Shown here piece by piece: positions 3,581 through 21,340 of a DNA stretch of 32,000 nt. The position numbers were made by a program, and so were the translations under genes. The first letter of the stretch is position 1. The number at the start of each line of letters is the position of its first letter. The notes under the pieces are model-generated. The model was not told where the DNA came from, did not search any database, and was given only the letters and a program-made list of their open reading frames with translations. This DNA comes from Acaryochloris marina S15 (GTDB taxonomy: Bacteria > Cyanobacteriota > Cyanobacteriia > Thermosynechococcales > Thermosynechococcaceae), in assembly GCF_018336915.1 (NCBI RefSeq), contig NZ_CP064924.1:277760-309759 (forward strand), given 5' to 3'.

Positions 3581-4008
3581 TGAGTCTCTTAGATAAGATT
3601 CGCCAGGAAACAGAAGTTCCTTCAGTCAAGGTTGAAACACGACAGGATGCATTAATCGAGAATCTTGCAGAGGAAAACAACTCGACTCCACCACCATCGA
3701 TCGATACCCATAAAGATATAGAAGCAAACTTATCAACAGAGCTTGCTTCATTTCCACCAATCGCTGACAAAAAGGTTGGTGTCAGATTAGAAGAGGATGT
3801 CCTTGCAGAATTGGAAGTTATTTGTAAGAAACACAAAATAACGATAGAAACATTTCTTGAGGCCGCACTTAATGTCTGTCAACAAGATTCATCGGCAATG
3901 AATGCAGCCATAGGTGATGCTCAAACAAGACTCGCTAGGAGAAAAAGAGCAGGTACGATACGCTCAATTTTGACAAAATCTCAAAACTTATTTAAAAAAG
4001 AGCAATAG
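3580..4008 (+). CDS. Putative centromere-binding partition adaptor with a ribbon-helix-helix-like C-terminal region (ParG-like)
   Basis: Translationally coupled to parA. Acidic, disordered N-terminus. The segment KKVGVRLEEDVLAELEVICKKHKITIETFLEAAL fits a beta-strand plus two helices (RHH pattern). Confidence 0.5.
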   Translation: MSLLDKIRQETEVPSVKVETRQDALIENLAEENNSTPPPSIDTHKDIEANLSTELASFPPIADKKVGVRLEEDVLAELEVICKKHKITIETFLEAALNVCQQDSSAMNAAIGDAQTRLARRKRAGTIRSILTKSQNLFKKEQ

Positions 4009-4010
4009 CA

Positions 4011-4040
4011 CTATTGCGCTAAAGTACAAAAGTGTAATAG
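4011..4040. repeat. Additional copy of the 16-bp par-associated repeat plus an inverted copy, immediately downstream of the par operon
   Basis: ctattgcgctaaagta (4011-4026) followed by caaaagtgtaatag (4027-4040). The latter is the reverse complement of ctattacacttttg. Confidence 0.4.
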
Positions 4041-4156
4041 TTTTGCTTACAAAGTTTTTAGTGATGACTGAAGTGTATTTAGTAGCTATGACTATATACG
4101 CCCAATATCTAGCAATCCTCTAGATCATCAGCAGAGCTTATCATTCGGCCCAATTG

Positions 4157-4323
4157 AAGGGTTGCTGACACCAGCTGCAATCAAGCACTTTTTGGGTCCT
4201 GAAACAACGCAAATACGTTAGATCAGAATCTAAATTATTACAGAGAGCTAAAGAGTATTGAGAGATATTAAGCTCTAGAAAGCTTACCCTATATAACTTC
4301 TAGGCTTTTTTGCAGATGGTGTC
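4157..4323. repeat. 23-bp imperfect inverted repeat enclosing about 121 bp (MITE-like element or IS-end relic)
   Basis: aagggtTgctgacaccaGctgca (4157-4179) versus the reverse complement of 4301-4323, aagggtCgctgacaccaTctgca (21/23 match). It lies next to a transposase fragment. Confidence 0.5.
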
Positions 4324-4423
4324 AGCGACCCTTTAATTATCCCAACCCTAAACGCCTTACTGGATAAGCTTCTGTTTAAAATGAGAATTGCTGGCGCTGA
4401 AGGGTTCGTTTGACACTTTGATA

Positions 4424-4714
4424 TTAGCCTGGATATTGCTCTTGGAGGTAGTCATACAGAGTAAGAGGCTCAAGCCTGGGTTCTCTTTGGAGCATTGGCT
4501 CCAGTTCAATGTCCCACACATCAGAAAGAGGATCTTTGTGGGTACGCCAGGTTCTTTGTGCCTTAGTGGTTGAGCGGTGCTGGCCTTTCTCTATTCGTCG
4601 GCCACTGCGTTCTGAAATGCCAGCAATGGTGGAGACTTGAGCTTGGGTACAGGATTGGTCTCTAGCTCGGTTATAAACTTCCACTTTGTAGGTTTCAATA
4701 AGTTGACCACGCAC
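4424..4714 (-). pseudogene. N-terminal fragment of a DDE/rve-type transposase (HTH region only), truncated
   Basis: HTH-like QAQVSTIAGISERSGRRIEKG, then RTWRTHKDPLSDVW...LEPLTLYDYLQEQYPG, typical of transposase N-termini. It ends at an in-frame TAA. A few more homologous-looking codons follow (YQSVKRTLQRQ), and no catalytic domain is present. Confidence 0.6.
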
Positions 4715-4972
4715 TAGATCTACTCCCTTTCTAATTTGGGACTTGATCTAGTGTGTTTGTTATTGTTCGGTCAATACAGGGATAATTGACGCCAACTTAA
4801 TTAGTGATCATGTTTTAAATGGCGATCTCATAACCGGTTAAGCAATTGACTTCGAGCTTGGTCTAATTGTTGCCTGACAATCTCTAGAATTACTGCTGTA
4901 AAACGTTTTCAAGCTAAAATAGAAACCACTAAGATCTCAAATGGGCTCTATAGGAATAATCGATCTTTTATT

Positions 4973-6073
4973 TTGGATACCTCACAAAAAACTAGTCTAA
5001 ACCCAACAAGATTACCCTTGCTGGTCTGTGGTAGCTTGCTCGTCGTCGCTCTACTGATAGGAGTTTGGAAATTACCCCAGCGTCAAGCATCCATGCTCAA
5101 ACAGCGAATCGAGAGGGAAGAGAATACTGCGATTTCCCGCGAGAAACTATTTCAGCTTGAAAATACGACTCGTGAGAATTACTTGAAAATCATTCAATCA
5201 TTTGGTGGACTTGGCTTTCTTTTGACAGGCTACTTTGCTTGGAGGAACTTGCAAATGGCTGAGAAAAATCGTGAACTTGCAGAGGGTAAGCAGGTAACAG
5301 AGCGCTTTAGCAAAGCTGTTGAACTTCTCTCCGATTCTAAGAAGCTTGAGGCCCGTATAGGTGGAATTTATATACTAGGCCGTATTGCTAATGATCATCC
5401 TAAAGATCAAATAACTGTGATGGAGGTACTAACAACCTTTATTCGAGAAAAATCGTTAGGAAGTGACCTTGAATGCCAATGTGATGAAGAGTATAGTAAC
5501 GCTGACATCCAATCTGCCCTTAATGTTATCGGCCGTCGTAACGTTGAAAATGATGGAGTTAGAGGATTGTTTCTTTATGGTTCAAATCTAAGTGGTGTAG
5601 ATCTTTGCGATACTAATTTCAGTAATACTGTCTTCAGTATGTGTGATCTCAGTAATGCCTATCTCCGTAAAACTAAGCTAATTAATACAAATTTTTCTGG
5701 TACTAAAATTAAAAAGACAAAGCTATGTGGAGCTTTTTTTAGTGGTGCTAACCTTAGCGGTGCTAACCTTAGCAGTACTGATCTAAGTGAATCTGATCTT
5801 ACTGATGCTGACCTAAGTGAATCCGATCTAAGTGAATCTGATCTTACTGATGCTGACCTAAGTGAATCCAATCTCACTGATGCTATTTTGAGTAGTGCCA
5901 ACCTGAAGAGAGCTAACCTAAAAAGAGCAGATCTTCGTGAGACTAAAGAAATAACTCCTAATCAGATCAAACAAGCAAGTAATTGGGAGCAAGCTCACTA
6001 CAGCGACGATTTCAAAATTCAACTAGGACTATCAACCACCTCTGAAGAGTCAGCAGAAAAGCCCGAAGAATAG
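4973..6073 (+). CDS. Membrane-anchored pentapeptide-repeat protein
   Basis: TTG start. N-terminal hydrophobic segments. The C-terminal half is long A(D/N)LxX pentapeptide runs (ANLSGANLSSTDLSESDLTDADLSESDL...). A 42-bp segment (5783-5824) recurs 45 bp downstream (5828-5869). Confidence 0.8.
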   Translation: MDTSQKTSLNPTRLPLLVCGSLLVVALLIGVWKLPQRQASMLKQRIEREENTAISREKLFQLENTTRENYLKIIQSFGGLGFLLTGYFAWRNLQMAEKNRELAEGKQVTERFSKAVELLSDSKKLEARIGGIYILGRIANDHPKDQITVMEVLTTFIREKSLGSDLECQCDEEYSNADIQSALNVIGRRNVENDGVRGLFLYGSNLSGVDLCDTNFSNTVFSMCDLSNAYLRKTKLINTNFSGTKIKKTKLCGAFFSGANLSGANLSSTDLSESDLTDADLSESDLSESDLTDADLSESNLTDAILSSANLKRANLKRADLRETKEITPNQIKQASNWEQAHYSDDFKIQLGLSTTSEESAEKPEE

Positions 6074-6711
6074 TCCAACAAAATCGATCGACCATAAAAA
6101 TCCCCTTTCTGCTCAATCTTAAATCCACCCAATAGCAGCCCAAGCCAAACCGCTACCAAAGGTAATCGAACTCCCCTCACCAGCTCCACAAACGACACCG
6201 CCCCCTTAGCCCCTTCCAAATACTCTCGGATCGCGCCCACCCATGCCCCCACATCTTCTACATGACTGACTTTCAGGGCAACTGCTTCCCCAGACTCCAG
6301 CTCATCGACAAACTCTAGAACCGCATCCTTACTAACTTCCCCCACAACAGACTCAACAGGAACCCCAGTGAACCCCTGGCGACTCTTCCGTGACTTCGGC
6401 TGACGACATAGATCCGAGACATCCAGAAACATCGTCTGCTGAATCATCCCAGCTAAGAAATCTTCATCCAACACTGGACCTTCTGAGTTGTATCTGTCTT
6501 CCCAACCCTGGATCATTAGCTCTGCCCGCTGCAAACAAACCTCAGCCATATCCTTGATCGCATCTCCAGCTACCCGGAGCTGTTCGTGGGGAGAACGGCC
6601 CTGTAGATGCTGCTCCAGTGAGGCACACATCAGGGAAATATCAGCTTGCTCTGGTTCGTCTAAAGCAGAGGCCAAAGCACTGGCAAAATCAAGCTCAAGC
6701 TGAGTGAACAT
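6019..6711 (-). CDS. Hypothetical acidic protein. The C-terminal segment loosely resembles a ScpA/kleisin-type winged-helix tail.
   Basis: 230-aa ORF overlapping the upstream gene by 17 nt (operon). C-terminus VSFVELVRGVRLPLVAVWLGLLLGGFKIEQKGDFYG. The 3' end overlaps the convergent pentapeptide gene by 55 bp. Confidence 0.5.
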   Translation of the reverse strand: MFTQLELDFASALASALDEPEQADISLMCASLEQHLQGRSPHEQLRVAGDAIKDMAEVCLQRAELMIQGWEDRYNSEGPVLDEDFLAGMIQQTMFLDVSDLCRQPKSRKSRQGFTGVPVESVVGEVSKDAVLEFVDELESGEAVALKVSHVEDVGAWVGAIREYLEGAKGAVSFVELVRGVRLPLVAVWLGLLLGGFKIEQKGDFYGRSILLDYSSGFSADSSEVVDSPS

Positions 6712-7222
6712 GGCGCTTATCCTTCAGTGGACATTCCGCAATTTCACACTCGGTCGGTTCCATGCGGATCGGGGGTTCAAATTCTGTGATGCCATACCGA
6801 TTGCCCAGCACCTTCAGCACCTCCTTCAAATACCGATTCACTTGGGTATTCGTCATCCCCATACAGTGGACGGCTTCAATTTCCGCTAGCTTCTCACTCC
6901 CCTGCCAGACAGCGATAGCCAGAGCATGGAGGTGAGCATCCTTGGGCTTTTCCTTGTAAAGATAGAGCAAAGCCACGGGTGGGGCCAGGACGGGAATCGA
7001 GAAGGTTTCAGTGGTTTTTGCTGGCGCTGTTTTTGCTTTCTGGTCAGCGTATTCTCCTCGGCGCTTGGCATTGCTTTCTTTGCGGTGGCGATAGTGATTT
7101 CGTTTGCGATCGCAGGCATTATCCTTCCAGCACCCATCCCCTTGCGGCCCATGAACCCGCTTTGCTTCCATCCGGGAATAGTCGATGCATTGGAGGCAGA
7201 TGGGGTTTGGAGGTAGTGGCAT
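6695..7222 (-). CDS. Hypothetical protein with a Cys-rich, basic N-terminus
   Basis: 175-aa ORF with CLQC...C...C, then the Arg/Lys-rich stretch RKRNHYRHRKESNAKRRGE and a globular C-terminal half. Several overlapping ORFs in other frames are shorter or featureless. Confidence 0.5.
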   Translation of the reverse strand: MPLPPNPICLQCIDYSRMEAKRVHGPQGDGCWKDNACDRKRNHYRHRKESNAKRRGEYADQKAKTAPAKTTETFSIPVLAPPVALLYLYKEKPKDAHLHALAIAVWQGSEKLAEIEAVHCMGMTNTQVNRYLKEVLKVLGNRYGITEFEPPIRMEPTECEIAECPLKDKRHVHSA

Positions 7223-7535
7223 GGTTCGTTCTTTTGGATCAATACCCTTGAATAGATCATCAAAATCGAGGGGCTGACAGGACTAAATCAAACTAGTAAG
7301 CCATTAAAAAGCACTTAAAGAGGCAATAATTTCCATCCCCACCAACGCCCTAGATTACAGAAATATCCTTAATAAATGCGTAAAGCATATCAAAAGTGCC
7401 GATAATTCTAGATGGGATTAAATTAAATTTCAAAATAGCGCTCCGTCATCATTAGCAATCTATCGCAGACCGTCAGTTCTATACGCTCAACCCAATAGAA
7501 AAAAGACAACAAAATATCCCTTAGATTAACGCTGA

Positions 7536-10500
7536 ATGACGAGTCCGAGCCCAGAACAGCAAACCATTCTATTTCTTGCCAGCAACCCTGATGGATTGCG
7601 ACAAGTCGGACGAGAATTACGCGACATTAAAAACGGGTTACGCAGATCTGAGCATCGAGATCAGTTCACTCTATGTCCCTGCCTGGATGTACGTACTAAA
7701 GATATTCAACGGGCATTATTGGATGAAACGCCTCAGATAATTCACTTCGCTGGCAGTGGCAAAGGAGAAGCAGGACTCGTCTTTGAAGATCAAGCAGGCA
7801 ATCCCAAACTTGTCGCAAGTGCAGCCCTAGCAGGTCTATTTACTCTGTTTGCTGAGGACATCCACTGCGTCATTCTGAATGGGTGTTATACCCAGGTGCA
7901 AGCTCAAGCCATCGCTCAACATATTGATTATGTAGTAGGCATGCAGCAGGCCATCAGCCACGAAGCGGCCCTGGCCTTTGCCGTGGGTTTCTATGATGCC
8001 TTGGGTGCAGGCCGAGACATTGAATTTGCCTTTAAGTTGGGATGCAGTGCCATTCAAATAGAAGGCTTACCCGAATCTCTCACCCCGGTGTTGGTCCAAA
8101 AATCTAGCCTTCAATCCGCACCCCTCCACCCCTTACCCGAACAGCAGACTCATGAAAAACTCTGGAAAGTGCCAGAGTTACCCCCCCACTTTTTACCGCG
8201 TCCTCAGACCCTAAAAGCCCTAAGAGAGAAGGTCCTTACGGATCTAGCCCAGCCTGTCGTCATGACCGGGCAACGCGTCGGTGTTCAGGGTATGGGAGGC
8301 ATTGGCAAGTCGGTGTTGGCCACAGCCCTAGCTCGTGACCCTCAAGTTCAATCGGCATTCCCTGACGGTATTTATTGGCTAACCGTGGGGATAGAACCCA
8401 ACCTACTGGCTCAGCAAATCGCTCTAGCAGCAGCCCTCTGTGGTGAACGCCAGGTATTTGAAGATATCAATGAAGGGAAAAACCGCCTCCAAACCCTATG
8501 GCAAGGACGCCAAAGTCTATTGATTCTAGATGATGTCTGGTGCATCGCGGATGCTGACGTCTTCAATGTCCTGGGACATCAAAGTACCTTGGTAGTGACG
8601 ACCCGTGACTCAGAATTAATCACAGGATTAGGGGCCACTGACTTTTCCCTTTCGGTACTCCATGAGGATCAGGCGCTGGAGTTATTAGCCGCCTGGGTGG
8701 GCGTCCCCATCTCAGATCTACCCTCCCAAGCCCAGGAAGTAGCAAGAGAATGTGGCAACTTGCCCTTAGCCCTGGCCCAATGTGGTGCAATGGTGCGAGA
8801 TTTAACCCCTTGGCCCCATGTTCTCAGTGCCTTACAAGATTCAGATCTTGAATTTATCCAAAAACAGTTTAGTCATTATTCCTACCCCGATGTCTTCAAA
8901 GCCCTGCATGTCAGTGCAACGGTCTTAGCAGAAACCAACCCCATCGCTGCCGAACGCTATCAAGAACTGGCAGTGTTTCCAGCCGATGAATTGATTCCTG
9001 AAGCAGTCATTGTTCGCCTATGGCAATATACCGGAGTATTAAAGGAGCGAGATGCGGGCAAAATCCTAACCACCTTATCGAGTAAAGCCATGCTGCGGCT
9101 AGAGGGGGACTATCCCCAGCGGCAAGTCAGCCTCCATGACTTACAGCAGGATTATTTACAAGCCCAGCAAGCCGACCAGAAGGCATTGCATCAGCAACTT
9201 CTGGAGGCTTATCACCAGGGCTGTCCAGAGGGATGGCATTGTGGACCGAAGGACGGGTATTTCTTTGAGCATTTGGCCCATCACCTCCAGCAGGCAGAAC
9301 GCACCGATGAGTTACGGCAATTACTCTGGGACTATCGTTGGATTCAACGCAAATTGGGAGTCACTGATATCAATGCCCTGCTATTGGACTATGAAACCTT
9401 ACCCAAGGACCAAGACCTCAACAGTGTCCACAGTGGGTTACGGTTATCTAGCCATGTATTAAATCAGCATCCTGAGCAGCTTCCCAGTCAGCTCTTTGGG
9501 CGTTTGATGAGTCAAGATTCACCCCATGTGACCGCATTGACTCAATCTTTAGCTCAGGGACCGGGAGAATGCTGGATACGGTGTCTATTCCCCCATCTCA
9601 ACCAAGCGGGGGGAGCATTAGTGCGCACCCTCACCGGACATACTTCCACTGTCTATGGCGTGAGCATCAGCCCCGATGGCCAAACCGTAGTCTCCGCGTC
9701 TTGGGACCAGACCCTGAAGGTGTGGGACCTGGAGACGGGCCAGGAGCAGCGCACCCTCACCGGACATACTAGCCTTGTCAATGGCGTGAGCATCAGCCCC
9801 GATGGCCAAACCGTAGTCTCCGCGTCTTGGGACAAGACCCTGAAGGTATGGGACCTGGCGACGGGCCAGGAGCAGCGCACCCTCACCGGACATATTGCCT
9901 CTGTCAATGGCGTGAGCATCAGCCCCGATGGCCAAACCGTAATCTCCGCATCTAGTGACCATACCCTGAAGGTGTGGGATCTGGAGACGGGCCAGGAACA
10001 GCGCACCCTCACCGGACATACTGACTATGTCGAGGGCGTGAGCATCAGCCCCGATGGCCAAACCGTAGTCTCCGCGTCTAGGGACCAGACCCTGAAGGTG
10101 TGGGACCTGGAGACGGGCCAGGAGCAGCGCACCCTCACCGGACATACTGACCCTGTCTATGGCGTCAGCATCAGCTCCGATGGCCAAACCGTAGTCTCCG
10201 CGTCTGGTGACCAGACCCTGAAGGTGTGGGACCTGGCGACGGGCCAGGAGCAGCGCACCCTCACCGGACATACTGCCTCTGTCGAGGGCGTGAGCATCAG
10301 CTCCGATGGCCAAACCGTAGTCTCCGCGTCTGGTGACCATACCCTGAAGGTGTGGGACCTGGAGACGGGCCAGGAGCAGCGCACCCTCACCGGACATACT
10401 GCCTCTGTCGAGGGCGTGAGCATCAGCTCCGATGGCCAAACCGTGGTCTCCGCGTCTGATGACCATACCCTGAAGGTGTGGGACCTGGAGACGGGCCAGG

Positions 10501-11534
10501 AGCAGCGCACCCTCACCGGACATACTGCCTCTGTCGAGGGCGTGAGCATCAGCTCCGATGGCCAAACCGTAGTCTCCGCGTCTGGTGACCATACCCTGAA
10601 GGTGTGGGACCTGGAGACGGGCCAGGAGCAGCGCACCCTCACCGGACATACTTCCCTTGTCCATGGCGTGAGCATCAGCCCCGATGGCCAAACCGTAGTC
10701 TCCGCGTCTAAGGACCAGACCCTGAAGGTGTGGGACCTGGAGACGGGCCAGGAGCAGCGCACCCTCACCGGACATACTGCCTCTGTCACTGGCGTCAGCA
10801 TCAGCCCCGATGGCCAAACCGTCGTCTCCGCGTCTTGGGACAATACCCTGAAGGTGTGGGACCTGGAGACGGGCCAGGAGCAGCGCACCCTCACCGGACA
10901 TACTGCCTATGTCACTGGCGTGAGCATCAGCCCCGATGGCCAAACCCTTGTCTCCACGTCTTTGGACAAGACCCTGAAGGTGTGGGACCTGGAGACGGGC
11001 CAGGAGCAGCGCACCCTCACCGGGCATACTGACCCTGTCACTGGCGTGAGCATCAACCCCGATGGCCAAACCGTCGTCTCCGCGTCTTGGGACTGTACCC
11101 TGAAGGTGTGGGACCTGGAGACGGGCCAGGAGCAGCGCACCCTCACCGGACATACTTCCACTGTCACTGGCGTCAGCATCAGCCCCGATGGCCAAACCGT
11201 CGTCTCCGCGTCTTGGGACTGTACCCTGAAGGTGTGGGACCTGGAGACGGGCCAGGAGCAGCGCACCCTCACCGGACATACTGCCCCTGTCAATGGCGTG
11301 AGCATCAGCCCCGATGGCCAAACCCTTGTCTCCGCGTCTGATGACCATACCCTGAAGGCATGGGACCTGCTGACCGGCATGGAAGTGATGAGCTTCACGG
11401 GAGAAGGTGCATTTCAATGTTGTGAGATTGCCCTAGATGGTCGCACCGTCATTGCTGGAGATGCTGGGGGACAGCTTTACTTTCTGCGGCTAGAAGGCCC
11501 CAGCTTTTCAGACGACGGGGAGGTTATCTCATGA
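7536..11534 (+). CDS. NLR/STAND-like protein: caspase/CHAT-like N-domain (His to Ser variant) + NB-ARC (AP-ATPase) + Apaf-1-type helical domain + 14 WD40 blades and a degenerate 15th
   Basis: Walker A GMGGIGKS (8289-8312), Walker B LLILDDVW, VVTTRD, GNLPLALAQCG. WD40 units of form GHTxxVxGVSISPDGQTVVSASxDxTLKVWDLETGQEQRTLT. Confidence 0.9.
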   Translation: MTSPSPEQQTILFLASNPDGLRQVGRELRDIKNGLRRSEHRDQFTLCPCLDVRTKDIQRALLDETPQIIHFAGSGKGEAGLVFEDQAGNPKLVASAALAGLFTLFAEDIHCVILNGCYTQVQAQAIAQHIDYVVGMQQAISHEAALAFAVGFYDALGAGRDIEFAFKLGCSAIQIEGLPESLTPVLVQKSSLQSAPLHPLPEQQTHEKLWKVPELPPHFLPRPQTLKALREKVLTDLAQPVVMTGQRVGVQGMGGIGKSVLATALARDPQVQSAFPDGIYWLTVGIEPNLLAQQIALAAALCGERQVFEDINEGKNRLQTLWQGRQSLLILDDVWCIADADVFNVLGHQSTLVVTTRDSELITGLGATDFSLSVLHEDQALELLAAWVGVPISDLPSQAQEVARECGNLPLALAQCGAMVRDLTPWPHVLSALQDSDLEFIQKQFSHYSYPDVFKALHVSATVLAETNPIAAERYQELAVFPADELIPEAVIVRLWQYTGVLKERDAGKILTTLSSKAMLRLEGDYPQRQVSLHDLQQDYLQAQQADQKALHQQLLEAYHQGCPEGWHCGPKDGYFFEHLAHHLQQAERTDELRQLLWDYRWIQRKLGVTDINALLLDYETLPKDQDLNSVHSGLRLSSHVLNQHPEQLPSQLFGRLMSQDSPHVTALTQSLAQGPGECWIRCLFPHLNQAGGALVRTLTGHTSTVYGVSISPDGQTVVSASWDQTLKVWDLETGQEQRTLTGHTSLVNGVSISPDGQTVVSASWDKTLKVWDLATGQEQRTLTGHIASVNGVSISPDGQTVISASSDHTLKVWDLETGQEQRTLTGHTDYVEGVSISPDGQTVVSASRDQTLKVWDLETGQEQRTLTGHTDPVYGVSISSDGQTVVSASGDQTLKVWDLATGQEQRTLTGHTASVEGVSISSDGQTVVSASGDHTLKVWDLETGQEQRTLTGHTASVEGVSISSDGQTVVSASDDHTLKVWDLETGQEQRTLTGHTASVEGVSISSDGQTVVSASGDHTLKVWDLETGQEQRTLTGHTSLVHGVSISPDGQTVVSASKDQTLKVWDLETGQEQRTLTGHTASVTGVSISPDGQTVVSASWDNTLKVWDLETGQEQRTLTGHTAYVTGVSISPDGQTLVSTSLDKTLKVWDLETGQEQRTLTGHTDPVTGVSINPDGQTVVSASWDCTLKVWDLETGQEQRTLTGHTSTVTGVSISPDGQTVVSASWDCTLKVWDLETGQEQRTLTGHTAPVNGVSISPDGQTLVSASDDHTLKAWDLLTGMEVMSFTGEGAFQCCEIALDGRTVIAGDAGGQLYFLRLEGPSFSDDGEVIS
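7557..8102 (+). other. Shared N-terminal domain, copy 1 (candidate clan-CD peptidase-like or adaptor domain). The His position is Ser.
   Basis: IIHFAGSGKG with Ser codon agt at 7755-7757, where copy 2 has His. VILNGCYT with Cys codon 7884-7886. About 60% identical by eye to 11671..12228. Confidence 0.6.
9624..11387 (+). repeat. Fourteen tandem 126-bp coding repeats (WD40 blades) with near-identical nucleotide sequence
   Basis: cgcaccctcaccggacatact recurs at 9624, 9750, 9876 ... 11262, an exact 126-bp phase. Differences cluster in about 5 codons per unit. Confidence 0.95.
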
Positions 11535-11670
11535 CTTAAACCGTTCTAATATCCCTTCAATTCCTGCCTCAACGTTTGGGGTGTTCTCTCACAACCGAAG
11601 GCTATCGACGTCGCAATTCAATCATTGAGTGTTCCACTATCTTCTGCCCGAATTTATCCGCCCTACCCTC

Positions 11671-12768
11671 ATGACTGCCCAAACCATTCTCTTTCTCGCT
11701 GCGAATCCCAAAGATACTAAGACTCTTCGATTGGATCAGGAGTTAAGGGATATTGGTGAGGGTTTACAGCAGGCTCAACGTCGAGATGAGTTTAAGCTTG
11801 AACAGCGCCTGGCGGTTCGCCCCCATGATATTCAGCGGGCCATGCTAGATCTGAATCCCCAGATCGTTCATTTCTCAGGCCATGGGAATGGGGATGAGGG
11901 CTTGGCCTTTGAGGATGTCAGTGGTAATACCCAGTTGGTCAGTGGTGAGGCGATTGCTGACCTGTTTAGCCTGTTTGCCGATCAACTGCGCTGCGTAGTC
12001 CTCAATGGCTGCTATACCGAGGTGCAAGCAAAGGCCATCTCGGAACATATTCCCTATGTTATCGGTATGAAACGGGCGATTGGGGATAAAGCGGCGATCT
12101 CCTTTGCCGTGGGATTCTATGATGCCCTGGGCTCTGGTCGAGATGTGGAGTTTGCCTTTAAGTTGGGCTGTGCCGCTATCCGCATGGAAGGCATTGAAGA
12201 ACATCTCACCCCCGTTCTGATTAAAAAGCCCATTACTGAGGAAACTAAGGATCAGGATCAACCCAATGCTCAAACTCCTCCAACACCCGCGCCTTCTCCC
12301 ATGACTCCAGACGCCGATGGACCCTTAGAGGTCTTTATTTCCTATTCCCATAAAGACGATGATTTACGAGAAGAGTTAGACATCCATCTTTCCAATCTGA
12401 AACGACAGGGGAAAATTGCTGCTTGGCATGATCGGGCGATTGAAGCAGGGGAAGAATGGGAAGCTCAAATCAAAGGCCATCTGGAGTCCGCTCAAATCAT
12501 TCTGCTACTGGTCAGCCCACCCTTTATGGCCTCTGACTATTGCTACGACATTGAGATGCAACGAGCGATAGACCGCCATAACGAAGGCACAGCCCGAGTC
12601 ATCCCTATTATTCTGCGTCCCTGTGACTGGAAAGGGTCACCCTTCAGTAAGCTGAAGATACTCCCTAAAGATGCCAAGCCCGTGACGAAATGGGCTGATC
12701 GCGATGAGGCATTCTTGGATGTCGTCAAAGGAATACGGAGGGCGGTAGAGTCCCTGACAAAAAAGTAG
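11671..12768 (+). CDS. Caspase/CHAT-like N-domain + TIR domain protein. Probably the N-terminal part of a TIR-NB-ARC-TPR protein.
   Basis: ATG at 11671 gives MTAQTILFLAANP, parallel to gene A; the track's GTG at 11629 is less likely. HFSGHG (His 11881-11883) and VVLNGCYT (Cys 12010-12012). TIR at 12328-12756 with FISYSHKDD and SDYCYDIEMQ (Glu 12553-12555). It ends at TAG 12766-12768, directly after A_AAA_AAG. Confidence 0.85.
   Translation: MTAQTILFLAANPKDTKTLRLDQELRDIGEGLQQAQRRDEFKLEQRLAVRPHDIQRAMLDLNPQIVHFSGHGNGDEGLAFEDVSGNTQLVSGEAIADLFSLFADQLRCVVLNGCYTEVQAKAISEHIPYVIGMKRAIGDKAAISFAVGFYDALGSGRDVEFAFKLGCAAIRMEGIEEHLTPVLIKKPITEETKDQDQPNAQTPPTPAPSPMTPDADGPLEVFISYSHKDDDLREELDIHLSNLKRQGKIAAWHDRAIEAGEEWEAQIKGHLESAQIILLLVSPPFMASDYCYDIEMQRAIDRHNEGTARVIPIILRPCDWKGSPFSKLKILPKDAKPVTKWADRDEAFLDVVKGIRRAVESLTKK
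12759..12765 (+). other. A_AAA_AAG heptamer in the correct register for -1 slippage, immediately followed by the TIR-ORF stop. A -1 shift enters the NB-ARC-TPR frame.
   Basis: Zero-frame codons are ACA AAA AAG TAG. The -1 frame reads AAA AAA GTA GAC CAC... and stays open to 15437. It encodes the conserved pre-P-loop segment PHNLPRSGVVEFVGREQTLQDLHQLL upstream of the only candidate start (TTG 12918). Confidence 0.6.
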
Positions 12769-12917
12769 ACCACTCTTCGTCAGGACTCAGTCCACCAACG
12801 GAGAGTCATCAGGGCCAGGGACCAGAAGCCTCGTCATCTTCTCAGGCAAGTCCCCCTCATAACCTCCCTCGCAGCGGTGTCGTTGAATTTGTCGGTCGTG
12901 AACAAACGCTGCAGGAC

Positions 12918-15437
12918 TTGCACCAGCTCCTCCAAAAGAACAATCCAGTAGCCCTTACTGCATTAGCAGGCATGGGTGGGATCGGAAAGACTGAACTTGC
13001 CCTGCAATATGCCATCTCCCAGCTCGATCAGGGTCAGTACCCTGGAGGACTTTGCTGGCTGCGAGTGAAAGGCCAGGCTCTAGCTGCCCAAATTATCGAA
13101 TTTGCCCGGACCAAGTTGGCACTGGCCCTTCCGGATGGACTCAATGAAGATCAACAGGTGAGTTATATCTGGGGGCAATGGCCCACCGGAAAGGTGCTGA
13201 TTATTTTTGATGATGTAAAGGACCTTGAGACCATCGAACCGTACTTACCGCCGTCAGACCCACGGTATAAAGTACTGATTACAACCCGACAGGATTTAGG
13301 TCTATCCGATCATTCCCTTTCCATTAAAGAACTGAGCGATACCAGTGCCTTATCCCTGCTGAGAACCCTAGTTGGAGCAGACCGAATTGATGCTCAGCTC
13401 GACGATGCTCAAGCCTTATGTGGATGGGTGGGTAAATTGCCCTTAGGACTAGAGTTAGTGGGACGGTATCTAGCCAGAAAGCCAGACTGGTCCCTCCAAA
13501 AGCTGATCAAGCGACTTGAATCCAAGCGATTACAAGCCAAAGCCCTGACGACTCCAGCATCAGGAATGACCGCACAGTTTGGGGTCGCTGCTGCACTGGA
13601 ATTAAGCTGGGTAGAGCTGAATGAGGCAGAGCAGGAACTGGCTTGCTTTTTGGGGATGTTTGCGGTTGCTCCTATTCCTTGGACTTTGGTTGAAGGATGT
13701 CTATCCGAACAGGATAAGGATGACTTAGAAGACATCAGAGATGAAGGTTTGAAAGATAGGAACCTACTCAAACGAATAGAAGAGAGTACCTACCAACTCC
13801 ATCAAATTGTTCAGGAGTTCTTTCGGATTAAGTTGAATGAGGATTCCGAACAGGGGAAATCCCTCAAAGCCGCTTATTGCAGAGGAATGGTTGCAGTTGC
13901 TCAGGGTATTAATCAGAATCCAACGATTGATGTGATTGCAGGGATGAGTGCCAGCATTCCCCATCTAGAGGAACTGATCCGACAGTGGATTGACCACCTC
14001 GGTGATGATGAATTGATGTGGCCCTATGTCGGTATTGGTCGATTTTATGAAGGGCAAGGGAACTATGCATTGGCTTTACCTTGGTATCAAAAATGCCTAG
14101 AACAGACTCAACAAAGATTGGGCAATGAACACACCGATGTCGCAACTAGCCTCAATAACCTGGCAGGACTCTACAAAAACCAAGGACGATATGAGGAAGC
14201 AGAACCCCTCTATACACAAGCCCTACAGATGAGACAGAAGCCATTGGGCAATGAACACCCCGATGTCGCAACTAGCCTCAATAACCTGGCATTACTCTAC
14301 GACAGCCAAGGACGGTATGAGGAGGCAGAACCCCTCTATACACAAGCCCTACAGATGACACAGAAGCTCTTGGGCAATGAACACCCCGATGTCGCTCTTA
14401 GCCTCAATAACCTGGCAGGACTCTACGACAACCAAGGACGGTATGAGGAGGCAGAACCCCTCTATACACAAGCCCTACAGATGAAAAAGAAGCTCTTGGG
14501 CAATGAACACCCCTCTGTCGCAAGTAGCCTCAATAACCTGGCAGGACTCTACAAAAACCAAGGACGGTATGAGGAGGCAGAACCCCTCTATACACAAGCC
14601 CTACAGATGACACAGAAGCTCTTGGGCAATGAACACCCCTCTGTCGCAAGTAGCCTCAATAACCTGGCAGCACTCTACGAGAACCAAGGACGGTATGAGG
14701 AGGCAGAACCCCTCTATACACAAGCCCTACAGATGAGACAGAAGCTCTTGGGCAATGAACACCCCTATGTCGCGACTAGCCTCAATAACCTGGCAGGACT
14801 CTACAAAAACCAAGGACGGTATGAGGAGGCAGAACCCCTCTATACACAAGCCCTACAGATGACACAGAAGCTCTTGGGCAATGAACACCCCTCTGTCGCA
14901 AGTAGCCTCAATAACCTGGCAGCACTCTACGACAACCAAGGACGGTATGAGGAGGCAGAACCCCTCTATACACAAGCCCTACAGATGAGACAGAAGCTAT
15001 TGGGCAATGAACACCCCGATGTCGCAACTAGCCTCAATAACCTGGCATTACTCTACGACAACCAAGGACGGTATGAGGAGGCAGAACCCCTCTATACACA
15101 AGCCCTGCAGATGAAAAAGAAGCTCTTGGGCAATGAACACCCCTCTGTCGCAAGTAGCCTCAATAACCTGGCAGGACTCTACAAAAACCAAGGACGGTAT
15201 GAGGAGGCAGAACCCCTCTATACACAAGCCCTACAGATGAGACAGAAGCTCTTGGGCAATGAACACCCCTCTGTCGCGACTAGCCTCAATAACCTGGCAT
15301 TACTCTACAAAAACCAAGGACGGTATAAGGAGGCCAAATCTAATTTAAAGCAAGCACTAAAGATAGTAGAGGTCGTCTTGGGTCCAGAGCATCCTTCTAC
15401 TCGGACCATGCGAAACAACTTAGAGTCCATCCCCTAG
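12918..15437 (+). CDS. NB-ARC (AP-ATPase) + 42-aa TPR (kinesin-light-chain type) repeat protein. The true N-terminus is almost certainly upstream, fused to the TIR ORF via a -1 frame change.
   Basis: Walker A GMGGIGKT (12969-12992), LIIFDDV, ITTRQ, GKLPLGLELVG. Ten near-identical units of form LGNEHPxVAxSLNNLAxLYxxQGRYEEAEPLYTQALQMxxKL. The frame is open from 12708 with no ATG or GTG before 12918. Confidence 0.85.
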   Translation: MHQLLQKNNPVALTALAGMGGIGKTELALQYAISQLDQGQYPGGLCWLRVKGQALAAQIIEFARTKLALALPDGLNEDQQVSYIWGQWPTGKVLIIFDDVKDLETIEPYLPPSDPRYKVLITTRQDLGLSDHSLSIKELSDTSALSLLRTLVGADRIDAQLDDAQALCGWVGKLPLGLELVGRYLARKPDWSLQKLIKRLESKRLQAKALTTPASGMTAQFGVAAALELSWVELNEAEQELACFLGMFAVAPIPWTLVEGCLSEQDKDDLEDIRDEGLKDRNLLKRIEESTYQLHQIVQEFFRIKLNEDSEQGKSLKAAYCRGMVAVAQGINQNPTIDVIAGMSASIPHLEELIRQWIDHLGDDELMWPYVGIGRFYEGQGNYALALPWYQKCLEQTQQRLGNEHTDVATSLNNLAGLYKNQGRYEEAEPLYTQALQMRQKPLGNEHPDVATSLNNLALLYDSQGRYEEAEPLYTQALQMTQKLLGNEHPDVALSLNNLAGLYDNQGRYEEAEPLYTQALQMKKKLLGNEHPSVASSLNNLAGLYKNQGRYEEAEPLYTQALQMTQKLLGNEHPSVASSLNNLAALYENQGRYEEAEPLYTQALQMRQKLLGNEHPYVATSLNNLAGLYKNQGRYEEAEPLYTQALQMTQKLLGNEHPSVASSLNNLAALYDNQGRYEEAEPLYTQALQMRQKLLGNEHPDVATSLNNLALLYDNQGRYEEAEPLYTQALQMKKKLLGNEHPSVASSLNNLAGLYKNQGRYEEAEPLYTQALQMRQKLLGNEHPSVATSLNNLALLYKNQGRYKEAKSNLKQALKIVEVVLGPEHPSTRTMRNNLESIP
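14118..15377 (+). repeat. Ten tandem 126-bp coding repeats (TPR units) with near-identical nucleotide sequence
   Basis: ttgggcaatgaacac recurs at 14118, 14244 ... with an exact 126-bp phase. The last unit is degenerate, and variation is confined to a few codons. Confidence 0.9.
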
Positions 15438-15680
15438 AAAGCCACCAACCAAGACCAAATTAATCAAAGTCAGTCCTGGCAAGAACTTCAGAATCCGGCT
15501 GGGAAGGACTTATTTTTCGTGTAATTTTTTGTGTAATACAGATTTTGGTAGAAAATCTGGAATTAAAATCACAGATCTAATATGGTGATCTTGGAATTCA
15601 TACTCTGTGGTGCAAATTATTTTGTGTTTGGCTCAACATGCCGACTTGTCGCCTATGCGTCTGACTGAGCTGAAAACCTG

Positions 15681-16103
15681 TTAATCGGTGTAGTGTTCCT
15701 TCAGCCAGTTCACCAGATCAGAAGATTCAGTAAAGTCGAGCAATGCCTCACCAAGAGTTTCGAGTTGATCGAGGGAGAGGGATTGAATCTGGGATTGTAA
15801 TTCAGGGGAAACGTCACCAATGCGGCGGGTGAGTTGGCGGAGGATGAGGGATTGGGCTTCTCTAAGAGCGCCAGACTGTTCACCTTCCTGTCGTCCTTCC
15901 TGGCGACCTTCGTCCAAGGCTTCCTGGTAAACTTTCGTTTGCTTGAGTTCGCTTAAGCCCAACATACTCTCTATCTCTTCCCGGCTCAGTTGTGGAAATT
16001 TATAGACCACAATCGTTTCAATCAACTCCATTATCGCCGCTATCTTAGGATTTGTCTGTCTTTGCGTCTGAGCCCTTGATAGCATTGCTTTTGCTTGGGT
16101 CAC
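15681..16103 (-). CDS. DUF4351-like protein (C-terminal module of Rpn/YhgA-type PD-(D/E)XK putative transposases). No nuclease domain is present.
   Basis: KVYQEALDEGRQEGRQEGEQSGALREAQSLILRQLTRRIGDVSPELQSQIQSLSLDQLETLGEALLDF matches the characteristic cyanobacterial DUF4351 tail pattern recalled from memory. Confidence 0.55.
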   Translation of the reverse strand: MTQAKAMLSRAQTQRQTNPKIAAIMELIETIVVYKFPQLSREEIESMLGLSELKQTKVYQEALDEGRQEGRQEGEQSGALREAQSLILRQLTRRIGDVSPELQSQIQSLSLDQLETLGEALLDFTESSDLVNWLKEHYTD

Positions 16104-16195
16104 AATATGAGGTTGAGCCGAGGTAAGCTATGGGTGAGTGATATTAGATAAGGATGCATTTCAGGCCAGCTAAAAAAATCTGAGAAATATTATCT

Positions 16196-18931
16196 ATGTG
16201 GCCTGACTCACTTCGACATTGGAGTAAGCGAGCACGGCGGTCAATTGATCCTCGTCAAAGCCTCAAAGCTCGCTTACTGTTGATCACGTTTGGGATGGTT
16301 CTACTGCTCTCGACCGTTTTGAGTCTAGTGGTGGGCAACATCAGCACGGAACAACTAGAAGCGGTCACTAATCAATCTTTAGAAGATCTGGCCTTTCAAG
16401 TGGCCGACAAGCTTGATCGCGGTATGTTTGAGCGCTATCGGGATTTGCAAATCATTGCCAGCCTTGACGTGCTGCGTCAACCGAGTGTCTCAATAACCAC
16501 TGAGCGGAATCTGTTGGAACAGCTTCAGAAGTCCTACCCTAACTATTCTTGGCTGGGGGTAGCAGACCCTGCAGGTATAGTGAAAGCCAGCACTGGAGGA
16601 CTGCTGGAGGGAGAAAGTGTTGCCCAGCGTCCGTGGTTTCAGGCAGGACGGAAGCAGCCCTTTGTTGGTAGCATGCATGAGGCATTGATGCTAGAAAAAC
16701 GGCCCTCTAATCCCACTGATGAATCATCCCGATTTGTGGACTTGTCAACCCCTCTATTTGATGATCAGGGACAACTTCAGGGTGTTCTCGCTGTCCATTT
16801 AAGCTGGTCGTGGGCAAAGGAGACTACCCATCGGCTCATCAATCCAGAAGCCAAACACAATCATGCTGAAATCTTGGTTCTCTGCCAAGACGGGCATGTA
16901 TTGCTGGGACCAGCAGGTGTTCAGGGTGAAACATTACCGATCACCATCCTTAAAGCCTCCAATACGAATCGGACAGGATATTTTATTGAGTCTTGGCCCA
17001 GTCAGGGGGAGTTTGTGACTGGCTGGGCCAAGACTAAGGGCTATCTCAGCTATCCTGGACTGGGCTGGATTGTGCTGGCCCGTCGATCGGTGACCCAAGC
17101 CTTCGCCCCAGCTCGGGTGCTACAGGCAAAGGTTTTGGGTTGGGGACTGGGTATCGGAACGCTGTTTGCATTGCTCAGTTGGTTGATTGCACGCCGCATC
17201 TCGTTCGTAACGATTAAACTCACCACTGCTGCTGATCGCATTCGGCAAGGCAGCCCTGATGAAACCTTACCGACCGTTGAGGGACGAGATGAGTTGGCCC
17301 AGCTCTCGCGTTCCCTCCATCACATGGTCAATATGCTGCAAATCCAACGGCAAAACCTACTGCTCACCAATCAACAGCTCCAAGATGAGCTACAACTCCG
17401 TGAGCAGGCCGAACATACAATTGGGGAGCAGGCTGCATTGCTGGACATTGCCACCGATGCAATTTTTGTACGGGATTTAGATAATCGCATTTTGTATTGG
17501 AATCAGGGGGCACAGCGCACCTATGGATGGTCAGCAGCAGAAGCCTGCGGCCAAAATGCAATCACCTTCCTCAATTTAACAAGTTCCCCCGAGCTAGACA
17601 CCGCCGTACAAACTGTTCTTGAACAGGGCGAATGGCAAGGGGAGCTAGAAAAAGTGACCCAATCGAAACAAACAATCGTCGTTGATAGTCGCTGGTCGTT
17701 AGCCTGTAATGCAGAGGGTCAACCTGAATTCATCCTCACCGTTGATACGGACATTACTGAGCAAAAGCAGCTCGAGGTCCAGTTTCTGCGCGCCCAGCGA
17801 CTAGAGAGCTTAGGCACCCTCGCCAGTGGCATCGCTCACGATCTCAACAATATTTTCACCCCTATCATTGGTTCAGCGGGTCTCCTACCCATCACCCTAG
17901 ACCCAGCAGACAGCAAGAGCCGCCGCTTGGTGCGGATGCTCAACGATAGCGCTCAACGCGGCAGCGAATTAGTCAAGCAAATTCTAGCTTTCGCACGGGG
18001 GGCTGAGGGGGAATTCATTACGCTCCAGGTCGGTCACCTATTGGCCGAGATTCAACAGATCATCAGAAGCACGTTCCCAAAACACATTGAGCTGCAGGCC
18101 AATATTCCCACCCAGTCTCTGCCCACGGTGACCGCCGATGCAACCCAAGTCCATCAGATATTGATGAACCTTTGCGTGAATGCCCGTGATGCCATGCCTA
18201 ACGGTGGCATTCTAAGTCTATCGGCCAAAGCAATAACAGTGGATGAACACTTTGCGGAGATACATATTGATGCAAAGACTGGGAAGTATGTCGCGATCAC
18301 TGTTGCTGATACGGGTATGGGCATACCACTCGAGGTACAAGAGCGCATTTATGATCCCTTTTTCACGACCAAAGAGGTTGGCCAGGGTACAGGATTAGGG
18401 CTATCGACGGTGAGGGGCATTATCAAAGGTCATGGCGGATTTTTAGACCTTTATTCCGAGGTGGGTCGAGGAACAACCTTTACAGTGTTTATCCCCGCTG
18501 AACTCGATCATGAGATGGAGATACCTCAATATCCTGACTTACAAGAGGGGCAGGGGCAGTTAATTTTAGTGGTGGATGACGAAGCGCTGATCCTGCAAAT
18601 GACCAAGAGCACGTTAGAACTATTCAACTATCAAGTGGTCACGGCTACGAATGGGAGAGATGCGATCGCTCAGTACAAGCAATATCACCCTGACCTTGTA
18701 CTCATGGATATGATGATGCCGGAGCTAGGAGGGCAAGAAGCGATCTCAGCACTGAGAGACATCAATCCGCACCTCAAGATTGTTGCTACTAGCGGACTGA
18801 TTACAGAGCAATTTTCTACTATCAGTGTTGATGCCTTTTTGCCTAAGCCTTATACTCTGCAAGAGTTACTTCAGACACTTGGGCAATTTCAGGAAAAGAA
18901 CTCACATACTTTAGGCCATGAGATGCAATAG
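16196..18931 (+). CDS. Hybrid sensor histidine kinase: extracytoplasmic Cache-like domain, TM, HAMP, PAS, HisKA, HATPase_c, C-terminal receiver
   Basis: Two hydrophobic segments flank a ~280-aa sensor domain. HAMP-like ELAQLSRSLHHMVNML; H-box GIAHDLNNIF; N, G1 and G2 boxes (NLCVNARDAM, DTGMGI, GTGLGLS). Receiver: LILVVDDE...DLVLMDMMMP...KIVATSG...LPKPY. Confidence 0.9.
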   Translation: MWPDSLRHWSKRARRSIDPRQSLKARLLLITFGMVLLLSTVLSLVVGNISTEQLEAVTNQSLEDLAFQVADKLDRGMFERYRDLQIIASLDVLRQPSVSITTERNLLEQLQKSYPNYSWLGVADPAGIVKASTGGLLEGESVAQRPWFQAGRKQPFVGSMHEALMLEKRPSNPTDESSRFVDLSTPLFDDQGQLQGVLAVHLSWSWAKETTHRLINPEAKHNHAEILVLCQDGHVLLGPAGVQGETLPITILKASNTNRTGYFIESWPSQGEFVTGWAKTKGYLSYPGLGWIVLARRSVTQAFAPARVLQAKVLGWGLGIGTLFALLSWLIARRISFVTIKLTTAADRIRQGSPDETLPTVEGRDELAQLSRSLHHMVNMLQIQRQNLLLTNQQLQDELQLREQAEHTIGEQAALLDIATDAIFVRDLDNRILYWNQGAQRTYGWSAAEACGQNAITFLNLTSSPELDTAVQTVLEQGEWQGELEKVTQSKQTIVVDSRWSLACNAEGQPEFILTVDTDITEQKQLEVQFLRAQRLESLGTLASGIAHDLNNIFTPIIGSAGLLPITLDPADSKSRRLVRMLNDSAQRGSELVKQILAFARGAEGEFITLQVGHLLAEIQQIIRSTFPKHIELQANIPTQSLPTVTADATQVHQILMNLCVNARDAMPNGGILSLSAKAITVDEHFAEIHIDAKTGKYVAITVADTGMGIPLEVQERIYDPFFTTKEVGQGTGLGLSTVRGIIKGHGGFLDLYSEVGRGTTFTVFIPAELDHEMEIPQYPDLQEGQGQLILVVDDEALILQMTKSTLELFNYQVVTATNGRDAIAQYKQYHPDLVLMDMMMPELGGQEAISALRDINPHLKIVATSGLITEQFSTISVDAFLPKPYTLQELLQTLGQFQEKNSHTLGHEMQ

Positions 18932-19699: not shown

Positions 19700-21340
<1,641 letters not shown>

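Follow-up and report, generated by a model that had tools for sequence, protein, structure and literature searches.

A putative programmed -1 frameshift joint in a plasmid-borne, NLR-like CHAT-TIR module of Acaryochloris marina

Domain organization of two receptor-like genes

A 32,000-nucleotide stretch (the window) of a 309,759-bp replicon of Acaryochloris marina (accessions QUY45677.1 and QUY45643.1) carries two consecutive genes, designated here A and B, whose products have the layout of NLR/STAND receptors. The reading frame of gene B changes by -1 at a joint that, judged by its sequence, has the defining features of a programmed frameshift site of the dnaX/IS3 type. We compared the module with related loci, 80 genomic and 80 metagenomic, which are designated by L-numbers. 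Strain MBIC11017 has paralogous copies on its plasmids pREB7 and pREB8, and further copies are plasmid-borne in strain "Moss Beach."

An earlier note on this DNA had described gene A as an N-terminal domain followed by NB-ARC, an Apaf-1-like helical region and 14 WD40 units, and gene B as the same N-terminal domain and a TIR domain, continued in the -1 frame by NB-ARC and 10 TPR units. Its coordinates and open reading frames (ORFs) were borne out by our ORF map, and both domain orders were confirmed by Pfam, together with the ORF map for gene A and with TRF for gene B (Table 1). The NLR/STAND-like architecture attributed to the two genes, i.e., an NB-ARC core with C-terminal repeats and an N-terminal effector, also stands, gene B attaining it through the -1 frame only. 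In both NB-ARC cores the Walker A (GMGGIGKS/T) and Walker B motifs (LLILDDVW and LIIFDDV) are legible.

Table 1 Coordinates of the features of genes A and B in the window
Feature	Position	Strand	Basis
Gene A: degenerate CHAT / NB-ARC / APAF1-type helical / 14 WD40, 1332 aa	7536..11534	+	ORF map, Pfam, PADLOC
Gene A CHAT-like domain, residues 1-185	7536..8090	+	PADLOC chat 2.9e-16
Gene A NB-ARC ATPase, Walker A GMGGIGKS, residues 246-460	8271..8915	+	Pfam NB-ARC 5.1e-27
Gene A APAF-1-type helical domain, residues 549-623	9180..9404	+	Pfam APAF1_C 1.7e-12
Gene A WD40 sensor array, 126-nt unit x 13.9 copies, 93% identity	9623..11369	+	TRF; Pfam WD40, 14 stretches
Gene B zero-frame ORF: CHAT-TIR, 365 aa, short product of normal termination, ATG 11671	11671..12768	+	ORF map, Pfam
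Gene B CHAT, dyad intact: His71 (11881-11883), Cys114 (12010-12012)	11671..12225	+	Pfam CHAT 2.4e-9; PADLOC chat 5.8e-27
Gene B TIR, catalytic Glu295 (12553-12555)	12325..12765	+	Pfam TIR_2 2.6e-16; PADLOC ThsB-type 6e-63
Slippery heptamer A_AAA_AAG, zero frame	12759..12765	+	sequence; kept in 22 non-redundant TIR ORF ends
Zero-frame UAG stop directly 3' of the heptamer	12766..12768	+	TAG in 22/28 heptamer-bearing ORF ends
-1 frame continuation: linker / NB-ARC / TPR, 890 codons	12765..15437	+	open frame; fusion would be ~1255 aa
Stem-loop S1, predicted frameshift stimulator: 12772-12780 pairs with 12798-12806, from 6 nt after the heptamer	12772..12806	+	RNAfold
Pseudoknot stem S2 (tentative): loop GUCC 12790-12793 with GGAC 12819-12822	12790..12822	+	alignment
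Gene B NB-ARC ATPase, Walker A GMGGIGKT, -1 frame	12900..13538	+	Pfam NB-ARC 1.6e-15
Gene B TPR sensor array, 126-nt unit x 9.7 copies, 93% identity	14118..15334	+	TRF; Pfam TPR_12 + TPR_10; ~10 TPR units

The N-terminal domain of both genes is, by its profile matches, a CHAT caspase-like peptidase domain. The earlier note had called it private to this pair; it matches Pfam CHAT, the PADLOC chat model and the SAVED-CHAT structure 8tl0, the best solved relative of the family profile (1.9e-21). The two copies are 56% identical over 199 aa (E=1e-83), so that the similarity put at about 60% in that note is real, and their NB-ARC domains are diverged, as it had stated (31% identity). The catalytic dyad of SAVED-CHAT is H375/C422 (bioRxiv 10.1101/2023.06.23.546230). 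Mapping via 8tl0 identified it as the sole His-Cys pair at 47-residue spacing in the aligned chain, formed by the latter His in the motif HFxGHG and by the Cys in LNxC, and both residues are present in 148 of the 159 CHAT ORFs of the fetched loci.

In gene B, whose ATG start agrees with the starts of 20 aligned homologues, H71 is nearly invariant and C114 invariant. The conserved TIR glutamate singled out in the earlier note, E295, is invariant among 21 aligned sequences and lines up with the ..C.DEL.. motif found in Cat1 and in the plant TIR protein AT1G72930 (3jrn); the TIR domain as a whole matches that of Cat1 (9mud, 3.9e-10). From the kept catalytic residues, the CHAT domain of gene B is predicted to be protease-competent and its TIR domain to process NAD+. 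With the 365-aa product as query, 5757 relatives were retrieved from many cyanobacterial genera, mostly of 362-372 aa and typically ending in ..SL(T/S/A)KK. CHAT and TIR are nearly always fused within this CHAT-TIR family.

The joint between the two frames of gene B

The zero frame of gene B ends in a heptamer, A_AAA_AAG, with the stop codon abutting it. The same ending, N-A AAA AAG TAG with a long -1 frame open through the stop, recurs among the TIR ORFs of the fetched loci. The codon that precedes the Lys-Lys pair may be ACA, CCA, TCA, GCA, GGA, TTA or CTA, its wobble base always being A. As this codon varies and yet always ends in A, the conserved object is the nucleotide heptamer rather than the peptide. 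A second canonical X_XXY_YYZ heptamer, A_AAC_CCU, occupies the same position in another subclade, and the heptamer-bearing non-redundant ends comprise 22 with A_AAA_AAG, 4 with A_AAC_CCU and 2 with A_AAA_AAA; a few loci have longer A-runs. Among the non-redundant TIR ORF ends, a long -1 ORF follows in 25 cases and is missing in 3 when the heptamer is present, as against 1 and 27, respectively, when it is absent (Fisher p=2.8e-11, although the loci are phylogenetically related, so that this test and the covariation counts given below overstate independence). In loci that lack the downstream module, the heptamer is frequently disrupted, reading AAG AAG in L085 and AGG AAG in L084.

The -1 frame of gene B is open from 12708 to 15437. 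It has no ATG, GTG or TTG before 12918, and its NB-ARC match begins at profile position 2, upstream of this first possible start codon. Across loci, the -1 ORFs similarly lack such codons for 41-275 nt past the stop, neither the type nor the position of the first candidate start codon is constant between loci, and the -1 frame overlaps the zero-frame stop by 7-118 nt. When four copies from Acaryochloris and one from Stenomitos, of 50% identity, were used for comparison, the ratio of nonsynonymous to synonymous substitution rates (dN/dS) was 0.19-0.30; the -1 ORF of the window is under purifying selection. The predicted trans-frame junction peptide of gene B is ..SLTKKVDHSSSGLSPP.., also given as ..AVESLTKKVDHSSSGLSPPTESHQ...

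Some relatives carry homologous modules in a single frame. In L027 (TIR-AAA_16), the joint reads GCA AAA AAA ACC and is followed by the AAA_16 ATPase that is encoded by the -1 ORFs of L012 and L039, and L015 contains ..DKKVKQ.., the residues predicted for the shifted product. Further in-frame fusions were found in L026, L151, L152 and L161.

Downstream of the slippery sequence, a 10-bp helix starts 5-6 nt past the heptamer across loci. Its arms are ACUCUUCGU and ACGGAGAGU in the window, GGUUCUCCGC and GCGGAGAACC in L016, CCGUUUUCUGCC and GGCAGAGGACGG in L088, and GGCCCGUCGU and GCGGCGGGCC in L157, the pairing being kept between loci despite differing sequence. In a MAFFT alignment of 20 cassettes, 83.5% of the helix cells are paired and both-side changes occur in 9 of the 10 pairs, with the reservation that the hairpin was defined on the same sequences as were used for counting it. 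None of 500 shuffles matched the observed pairing, sliding the helix by 1-3 columns left 34-43% of cells paired, and RNAalifold independently found the helix core. A pseudoknot stem, S2, is tentative: 15-17 of the 19 sequences retain its core pairs, and the CG/UA and AU/CG swaps come mostly from one clade, the partner being a GUGCC-like element 11 nt further on. When a covariance model of the cassette was run on 1.3 Mb of related loci, it matched the window and one decayed site, the hairpin remnant beside AGG AAG in L084, without adding new members, which shows its specificity.

Two other observations concern this region. The hairpin loop of L013, L016 and L088 holds the cyanobacterial HIP1 palindrome GCGATCGC, with a second copy downstream in L088 at the expected partner site of the putative pseudoknot stem. 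A dnaX-like upstream Shine-Dalgarno stimulator was considered because GGAGG lies about 16 nt upstream in Acaryochloris; it is unconserved elsewhere and was dropped.

Several points weigh against programmed frameshifting at this site. RefSeq lists the -1 ORF of pREB8 as a separate gene, "tetratricopeptide repeat protein," with an internal TTG start (L082 7168-9183, NC_009933.1), and in the window, initiation at the TTG at 12918 would cost only about 6 residues of the NB-ARC profile. The heptamer also occurs without a long -1 ORF in five CHAT-TIR genes, and A_AAA_AAG is far less slippery where a tRNA-Lys(CUU) exists. In those five genes (L031 at 1798, L087 at 2749, L132 at 513, L164 at ~11057 and L166, minus strand, at ~3837), A_AAA_AAG-TAG is kept and the -1 frame shuts after 4-39 codons; they may be remnants that have lost their sensor, or the short -1 tail may be useful in itself.

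The first two of these points would fit an ordinary three-gene operon, consisting of gene A, a CHAT-TIR gene and a separate NB-ARC-TPR gene read from an internal TTG or GTG, in which AAA AAG TAG reflects the conservation of Lys-Lys only and the proteins meet after translation. Such an operon is exactly what RefSeq annotates on pREB8, the heptamer-bearing genes with no ORF behind them are also compatible with it, and adjacent stand-alone effector genes are known in related systems (PMC7159879). Nevertheless, it leaves unexplained why the wobble base before Lys-Lys is always A while the amino acid varies, and why Lys-Lys is always encoded by AAA AAG if a -1 ORF follows and by AAG AAG or AGG AAG if none does. 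The -1 frame that stays open through the stop, the shifting set of candidate start codons, the covarying hairpin at the spacing of a frameshift stimulator, the association of heptamer and -1 ORF, and the in-frame fusions of homologous modules argue against it as well. We therefore regard the operon as improbable.

Even less probable, in our judgement, is a break at the DNA level, be it a decaying pseudogene, a homopolymer assembly error or a phase-variable A-tract subject to slipped-strand mispairing or transcriptional slippage. The site is indeed an A-run, polymerase slippage is plausible in L025, L037/L038 and L091, which have runs of A9-A10, and the in-frame relative L027 has A8. In addition, the Moss Beach copy on pMB04 (L081 7731-10584, NZ_CP071721.1) has its -1 ORF cut to 586 codons and no coding sequence in the PLSDB gene table, from which pseudogenes are omitted. 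However, the same split, A6G plus stop, is found in finished plasmids, drafts and metagenome contigs from several cyanobacterial orders, and an A7 "fused" state was never met at the site in the lineages examined. A run of A6 is short for efficient DNA or RNA slippage, and the A_AAC_CCU variant is no homopolymer. A pseudogene or sequencing error at the frame change was rejected because independent assemblies agree on the site and purifying selection acts on the -1 ORF. Taken together, nucleotide conservation, the hairpin and purifying selection disfavour both the operon and the DNA-level break and point to programmed frameshifting. The earlier note had seen the frame change of gene B and overlooked this conserved recoding cassette, which is the most unusual feature of the locus.

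Gene A, alternative sensors and genomic context

The CHAT domain of gene A is degenerate. It scores 23.6 bits against Pfam CHAT (PF12770), just below the cut-off of 24, and the position of the catalytic His is taken by Ser74 (7755-7757; motif HFAGSG), with Cys117 (7884-7886) being kept. All gene A orthologues of at least 60% identity over CHAT and NB-ARC have S, N, R or Q at this position, whereas homologues of at most 51% identity keep the His; CHAT ORFs devoid of the catalytic His are mostly long in-frame CHAT-STAND fusions of the gene A type. The domain is thus predicted to be a pseudo-protease. Gene A has no TIR domain, and an output domain other than CHAT was not seen in it, as the earlier note had stated. 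Because its CHAT domain lacks the catalytic His and TIR is missing, gene A would be unable to act alone.

The neighbourhood of gene A is consistent with reliance on a partner. In all seven gene-A-clade genes with a readable flank (window, L001, L002, L081, L086, L164 and L166), a CHAT-TIR gene lies within about 1.3 kb; two more orthologues stop at contig edges. The order A then B is found in the window, pREB7, pREB8, Moss Beach pMB04 and the metagenome contig L086, whose gene A orthologue is 61% identical. In L164, the two types are on the same strand and both are broken by indels, and in L166 they are convergent. The association is one-sided: most CHAT-TIR/frameshift modules have no gene-A-like neighbour, and an Acaryochloris metagenome-assembled genome (L003) has the same two small upstream genes as the window followed directly by gene B. 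As gene B modules exist without gene A, recruitment by gene A would be an add-on at most. The suggestion of a paired module thus holds from the side of gene A and fails from that of gene B, and gene A has the appearance of an accessory sensor that relies on a partner and not that of one half of an obligate pair. That it uses the effector of gene B through the shared N-terminal domain, as the earlier note proposed, gains support from the loss of the His in its clade and from its constant CHAT-TIR flank. In L163, a TIR-AAA_35 fusion (3097-4818, minus strand, 573 aa) adjoins a gene-A-clade orthologue and is followed by an AAA_35-WD40 protein of 1009 aa, so that a further STAND-like pair with a TIR domain occurs there.

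What lies behind the joint differs between loci. The -1 ORF encodes NB-ARC-TPR in the Acaryochloris copies (Pfam was run on the window copy only) and in L157; an Apaf-1-like NB-ARC-APAF1_C-WD40 module, 46-49% identical to the core of gene A, in L022 and L030; nSTAND1/AAA_16 in L012 and L016; iSTAND in L021; and VMAP-C in L037, from Microcystis. Among paralogues, the -1 ORFs span 586-889 codons, and the relatives of gene A, whose total length also varies among paralogues, span 786-1332 aa. The differing total lengths of the repeat arrays suggest that the sensor arrays gain and lose repeats rapidly.

Other arrangements were encountered among the related loci. In many, mostly from Nostocales, a CHAT-TIR gene without the heptamer is followed by one to three more TIR-domain genes, some with long C-terminal extensions (L004, L017, L018, L019, L028, L029, L032, L034, L035 and L036); the same effector is thus organised differently in these loci. 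In L135 (~4860), a 287-aa CHAT ORF without TIR ends in ..CTA AAA AAA AAC TAG and precedes a -1 ORF of 1084 codons whose first start codon is 113 nt downstream; A-rich joints may therefore extend beyond the TIR family.

The flanks of the module are plasmid-like. A DUF4351/Rpn-family nuclease fragment, a dCache-HAMP-PAS hybrid histidine kinase, a ParA-type ATPase, a staphylococcal-nuclease homologue and an extra GroEL-type chaperonin are found there, with ORFs at 15681-16103 (-), 16196-18931 (+), 2720-3580 (+), 1757-2284 (+) and 19700-21334 (-), and a pentapeptide-repeat protein is encoded at 4973-6073. Two small overlapping ORFs, 6019-6711 (-, 230 aa) and 6695-7222 (-, 175 aa), lie upstream of the module and divergent from it; they matched no family. 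Both recur in syntenic position in pREB8, pREB7, Moss Beach pMB04 and L003, and homologues of about 34% identity occur 1-2 kb from a CHAT gene on plasmid2 of Calothrix NIES-4105 (L073 12589-13809). With synteny in Acaryochloris, a weak case in one Calothrix plasmid and no family assignment, we set them aside as members of the system. A promoter and terminator scan of 6900-16300 returned fewer sites than shuffled sequence did and so carries no information on operon structure, and a tRNA scan of the window found none.

Proposed mechanism and comparison with known systems

The reading that we consider probable is that of a plasmid-borne, NLR-like (STAND) cell-suicide or immunity module, in which one effector cassette serves two sensors and a programmed -1 frameshift operates in gene B. 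Most ribosomes would stop at the UAG and release free CHAT-TIR, and an inferred minority, aided by the adjacent stop and the hairpin, would slip by -1 on A_AAA_AAG and produce CHAT-TIR-NB-ARC-TPR, a full receptor bearing the same effector pair at its N terminus. Gene A would be a second, Apaf-1-like receptor, whose dead CHAT domain most likely docks free CHAT-TIR via CHAT-CHAT contacts. A trigger would bind the TPR repeats of gene B or the WD40 repeats of gene A, upon which the NB-ARC domains would oligomerise in a nucleotide-dependent manner; the clustered N-terminal CHAT and TIR domains could then become active and recruit and nucleate free CHAT-TIR, with NAD+ cleavage or signalling and proteolysis leading to cell arrest or death. 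Assembly-driven TIR activation is established in other systems. Filaments of SAVED-CHAT with CHAT-CHAT interfaces have been reported (bioRxiv 10.1101/2023.06.23.546230).

More generally, the conserved -1 cassette may serve as a portable joint that connects one CHAT-TIR effector with interchangeable sensors (NB-ARC-TPR, Apaf-1-like NB-ARC-WD40, nSTAND1, iSTAND or VMAP-C). It would fix the ratio of free to tethered effector, the tethered form seeding assembly of the free pool when its sensor is triggered and neighbours with a dead CHAT domain tapping it. We consider the case for this generalisation to be evenly balanced.

The recoding may also be real and the effector logic different. In a scheme resembling type IV Thoeris, the TIR domain would make a signal of the cyclic ADP-ribose (ADPR) type that switches on CHAT, activation would be diffusible, and the dead CHAT domain of gene A would be a sink, regulator or decoy. 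CHAT and TIR are nearly always fused in the family, the TIR domain matches the ThsB-type model of PADLOC at 6e-63, and type IV Thoeris pairs TIR-made N7-cADPR with a caspase-like protease effector (bioRxiv 10.64898/2025.12.03.692087). On the other side, the match to the ThsB model covers the generic TIR core only (positions 3-147 of 319), and a Pfam scan of the 365-aa protein gave no ligand-binding domain. We think such a scheme rather unlikely.

A similarly small probability attaches to a role unrelated to phages, in which the module would serve regulated cell death or signalling of another kind in Acaryochloris; death under stress, competition between kin or plasmids, and plasmid addiction are examples. 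The module is on a plasmid, has several paralogous copies per strain, and is flanked by plasmid partition genes, transposase fragments and a histidine kinase; PADLOC recognised no phage-defence neighbours, and in the literature such systems are described in broad terms, as conflict systems or apoptosis-like systems in multicellular bacteria (PMC7159879). The highly similar, copy-number-variable repeats, in contrast, are typical of fast-evolving non-self sensors, and related bacterial STAND/NLR proteins are reported to be phage-protective (bioRxiv 10.1101/2022.07.19.500537). On sequence data, neither the Thoeris-like scheme nor a non-immune role can be separated from the module with tethered and free effectors that we favour.

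If the portable joint is real, it would provide the first recoding-controlled NLR-like immune receptor, to our knowledge and in the literature searched, as well as one of the few instances in which bacterial genes that are not mobile use programmed frameshifting, and a well-conserved cellular addition to the short list of programmed frameshifts on bacterial chromosomes and plasmids. With real frameshifting, the effector-to-sensor ratio of a bacterial NLR-like receptor would be fixed in translation, and a few armed sensors facing a large free pool of caspase-TIR protein would offer a testable answer to the problem of amplification without self-activation. Dead-protease sensors such as gene A would be bacterial counterparts of sensor/helper NLR pairs and of regulation by pseudo-caspases. 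The joint also exposes a systematic annotation error, in that the sensors behind it are recorded either as pseudogenes or as genes of their own with a truncated N terminus, and surveys of domain architecture would thus miss the true receptor.

The literature searched yielded no description of immune-like receptors controlled by frameshifting. Frameshifting is not mentioned in PMC7159879, PMC8195603, PMC10907252 or the 2025 Thoeris/TIR survey, a set that includes the sequel to PMC7159879 and a paper on diversity-generating retroelements in which a CHAT-TIR target is reported. Acaryochloris, TIR and NB-ARC are without an entry in the GeneTack genome-wide frameshift survey and its supplements, and a recoding review of 2016 contains nothing matching. 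Assignment to a defence system finds no backing in PADLOC-DB 2.0, which returned no named STAND family (Avs/AVAST) and no ThsA-type partner, its matches being at the domain level only (chat, ThsB-type TIR, TPR and SAVED_CHAT). The earlier note did not recognise a named defence system here; the combination of CHAT, TIR and STAND lies within the described repertoire of conflict systems of multicellular bacteria (PMC7159879, PMC10907252).

Among the closest known systems are the NLR-like STAND conflict systems of bacteria (Kaur, Burroughs, Iyer and Aravind 2020, PMC7159879; antiviral STAND/bNACHT), with which the module shares the tripartite layout of effector, STAND NTPase and superstructure-forming repeats, the same caspase-like and TIR effectors and the same cyanobacterial enrichment. 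According to that work, the effectors, located at the N terminus or in an adjacent gene, include caspase-like and TIR domains, and iSTAND and VMAP-C are third components; these two are the -1 ORFs of L021 and L037, behind the same cassette. None of the 18 window ORFs run against Pfam matched MoxR, vWA, VMAP-C or iSTAND, and the vWA-MoxR ternary gene set was not found there. The present module differs in that effector and sensor are joined via a frame change and a recoding cassette.

The joint itself is comparable to those of E. coli dnaX and IS3-family transposases, where the same A_AAA_AAG is used with a stem-loop behind it (for the dnaX logo, see PMC3711429), and to that of the phage tail chaperones G/GT. 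As predicted for gene B, two proteins with a common N terminus are made there in a fixed ratio. Slippage yields the longer, fused protein in G/GT and IS3, as it is also expected to do in gene B. The differences are that the host gene is here an immune-like receptor, that the zero-frame stop abuts the heptamer, that the downstream part is interchangeable between loci, and that no upstream Shine-Dalgarno-like stimulator is evident.

With regard to the effectors, SAVED-CHAT and TPR-CHAT (Craspase) of type III CRISPR systems have a CHAT domain with the same His-Cys dyad as gene B, and their activation by oligomerisation or filaments with CHAT-CHAT interfaces is proposed for the window locus as well. 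The sensor is here a STAND ATPase with repeats, unlike the SAVED domain or crRNA complex of those systems, and CHAT is fused to TIR. Type IV Thoeris likewise uses TIR and a caspase-superfamily protease as one output; in gene B, however, TIR and CHAT are in one polypeptide and would be tethered to STAND sensors.

Two further parallels can be drawn. Gene A has the NB-ARC/APAF1_C helical/WD40 order of Apaf-1 in the Apaf-1/caspase-9 apoptosome, with a domain of caspase fold in the place that the recruitment domain has there, and genes A and B recall the paired and helper NLRs of plants, in which a sensor without its own catalytic output stands beside a partner that has one. In contrast to both, docking would occur via a dead protease fold rather than a CARD/death-fold, the partner is predicted to be a full receptor in its own right, and the pairing is one-sided. 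The architecture is of a known kind; what is new is the conserved putative frameshift joint and the dependent sensor with a predicted dead CHAT domain.

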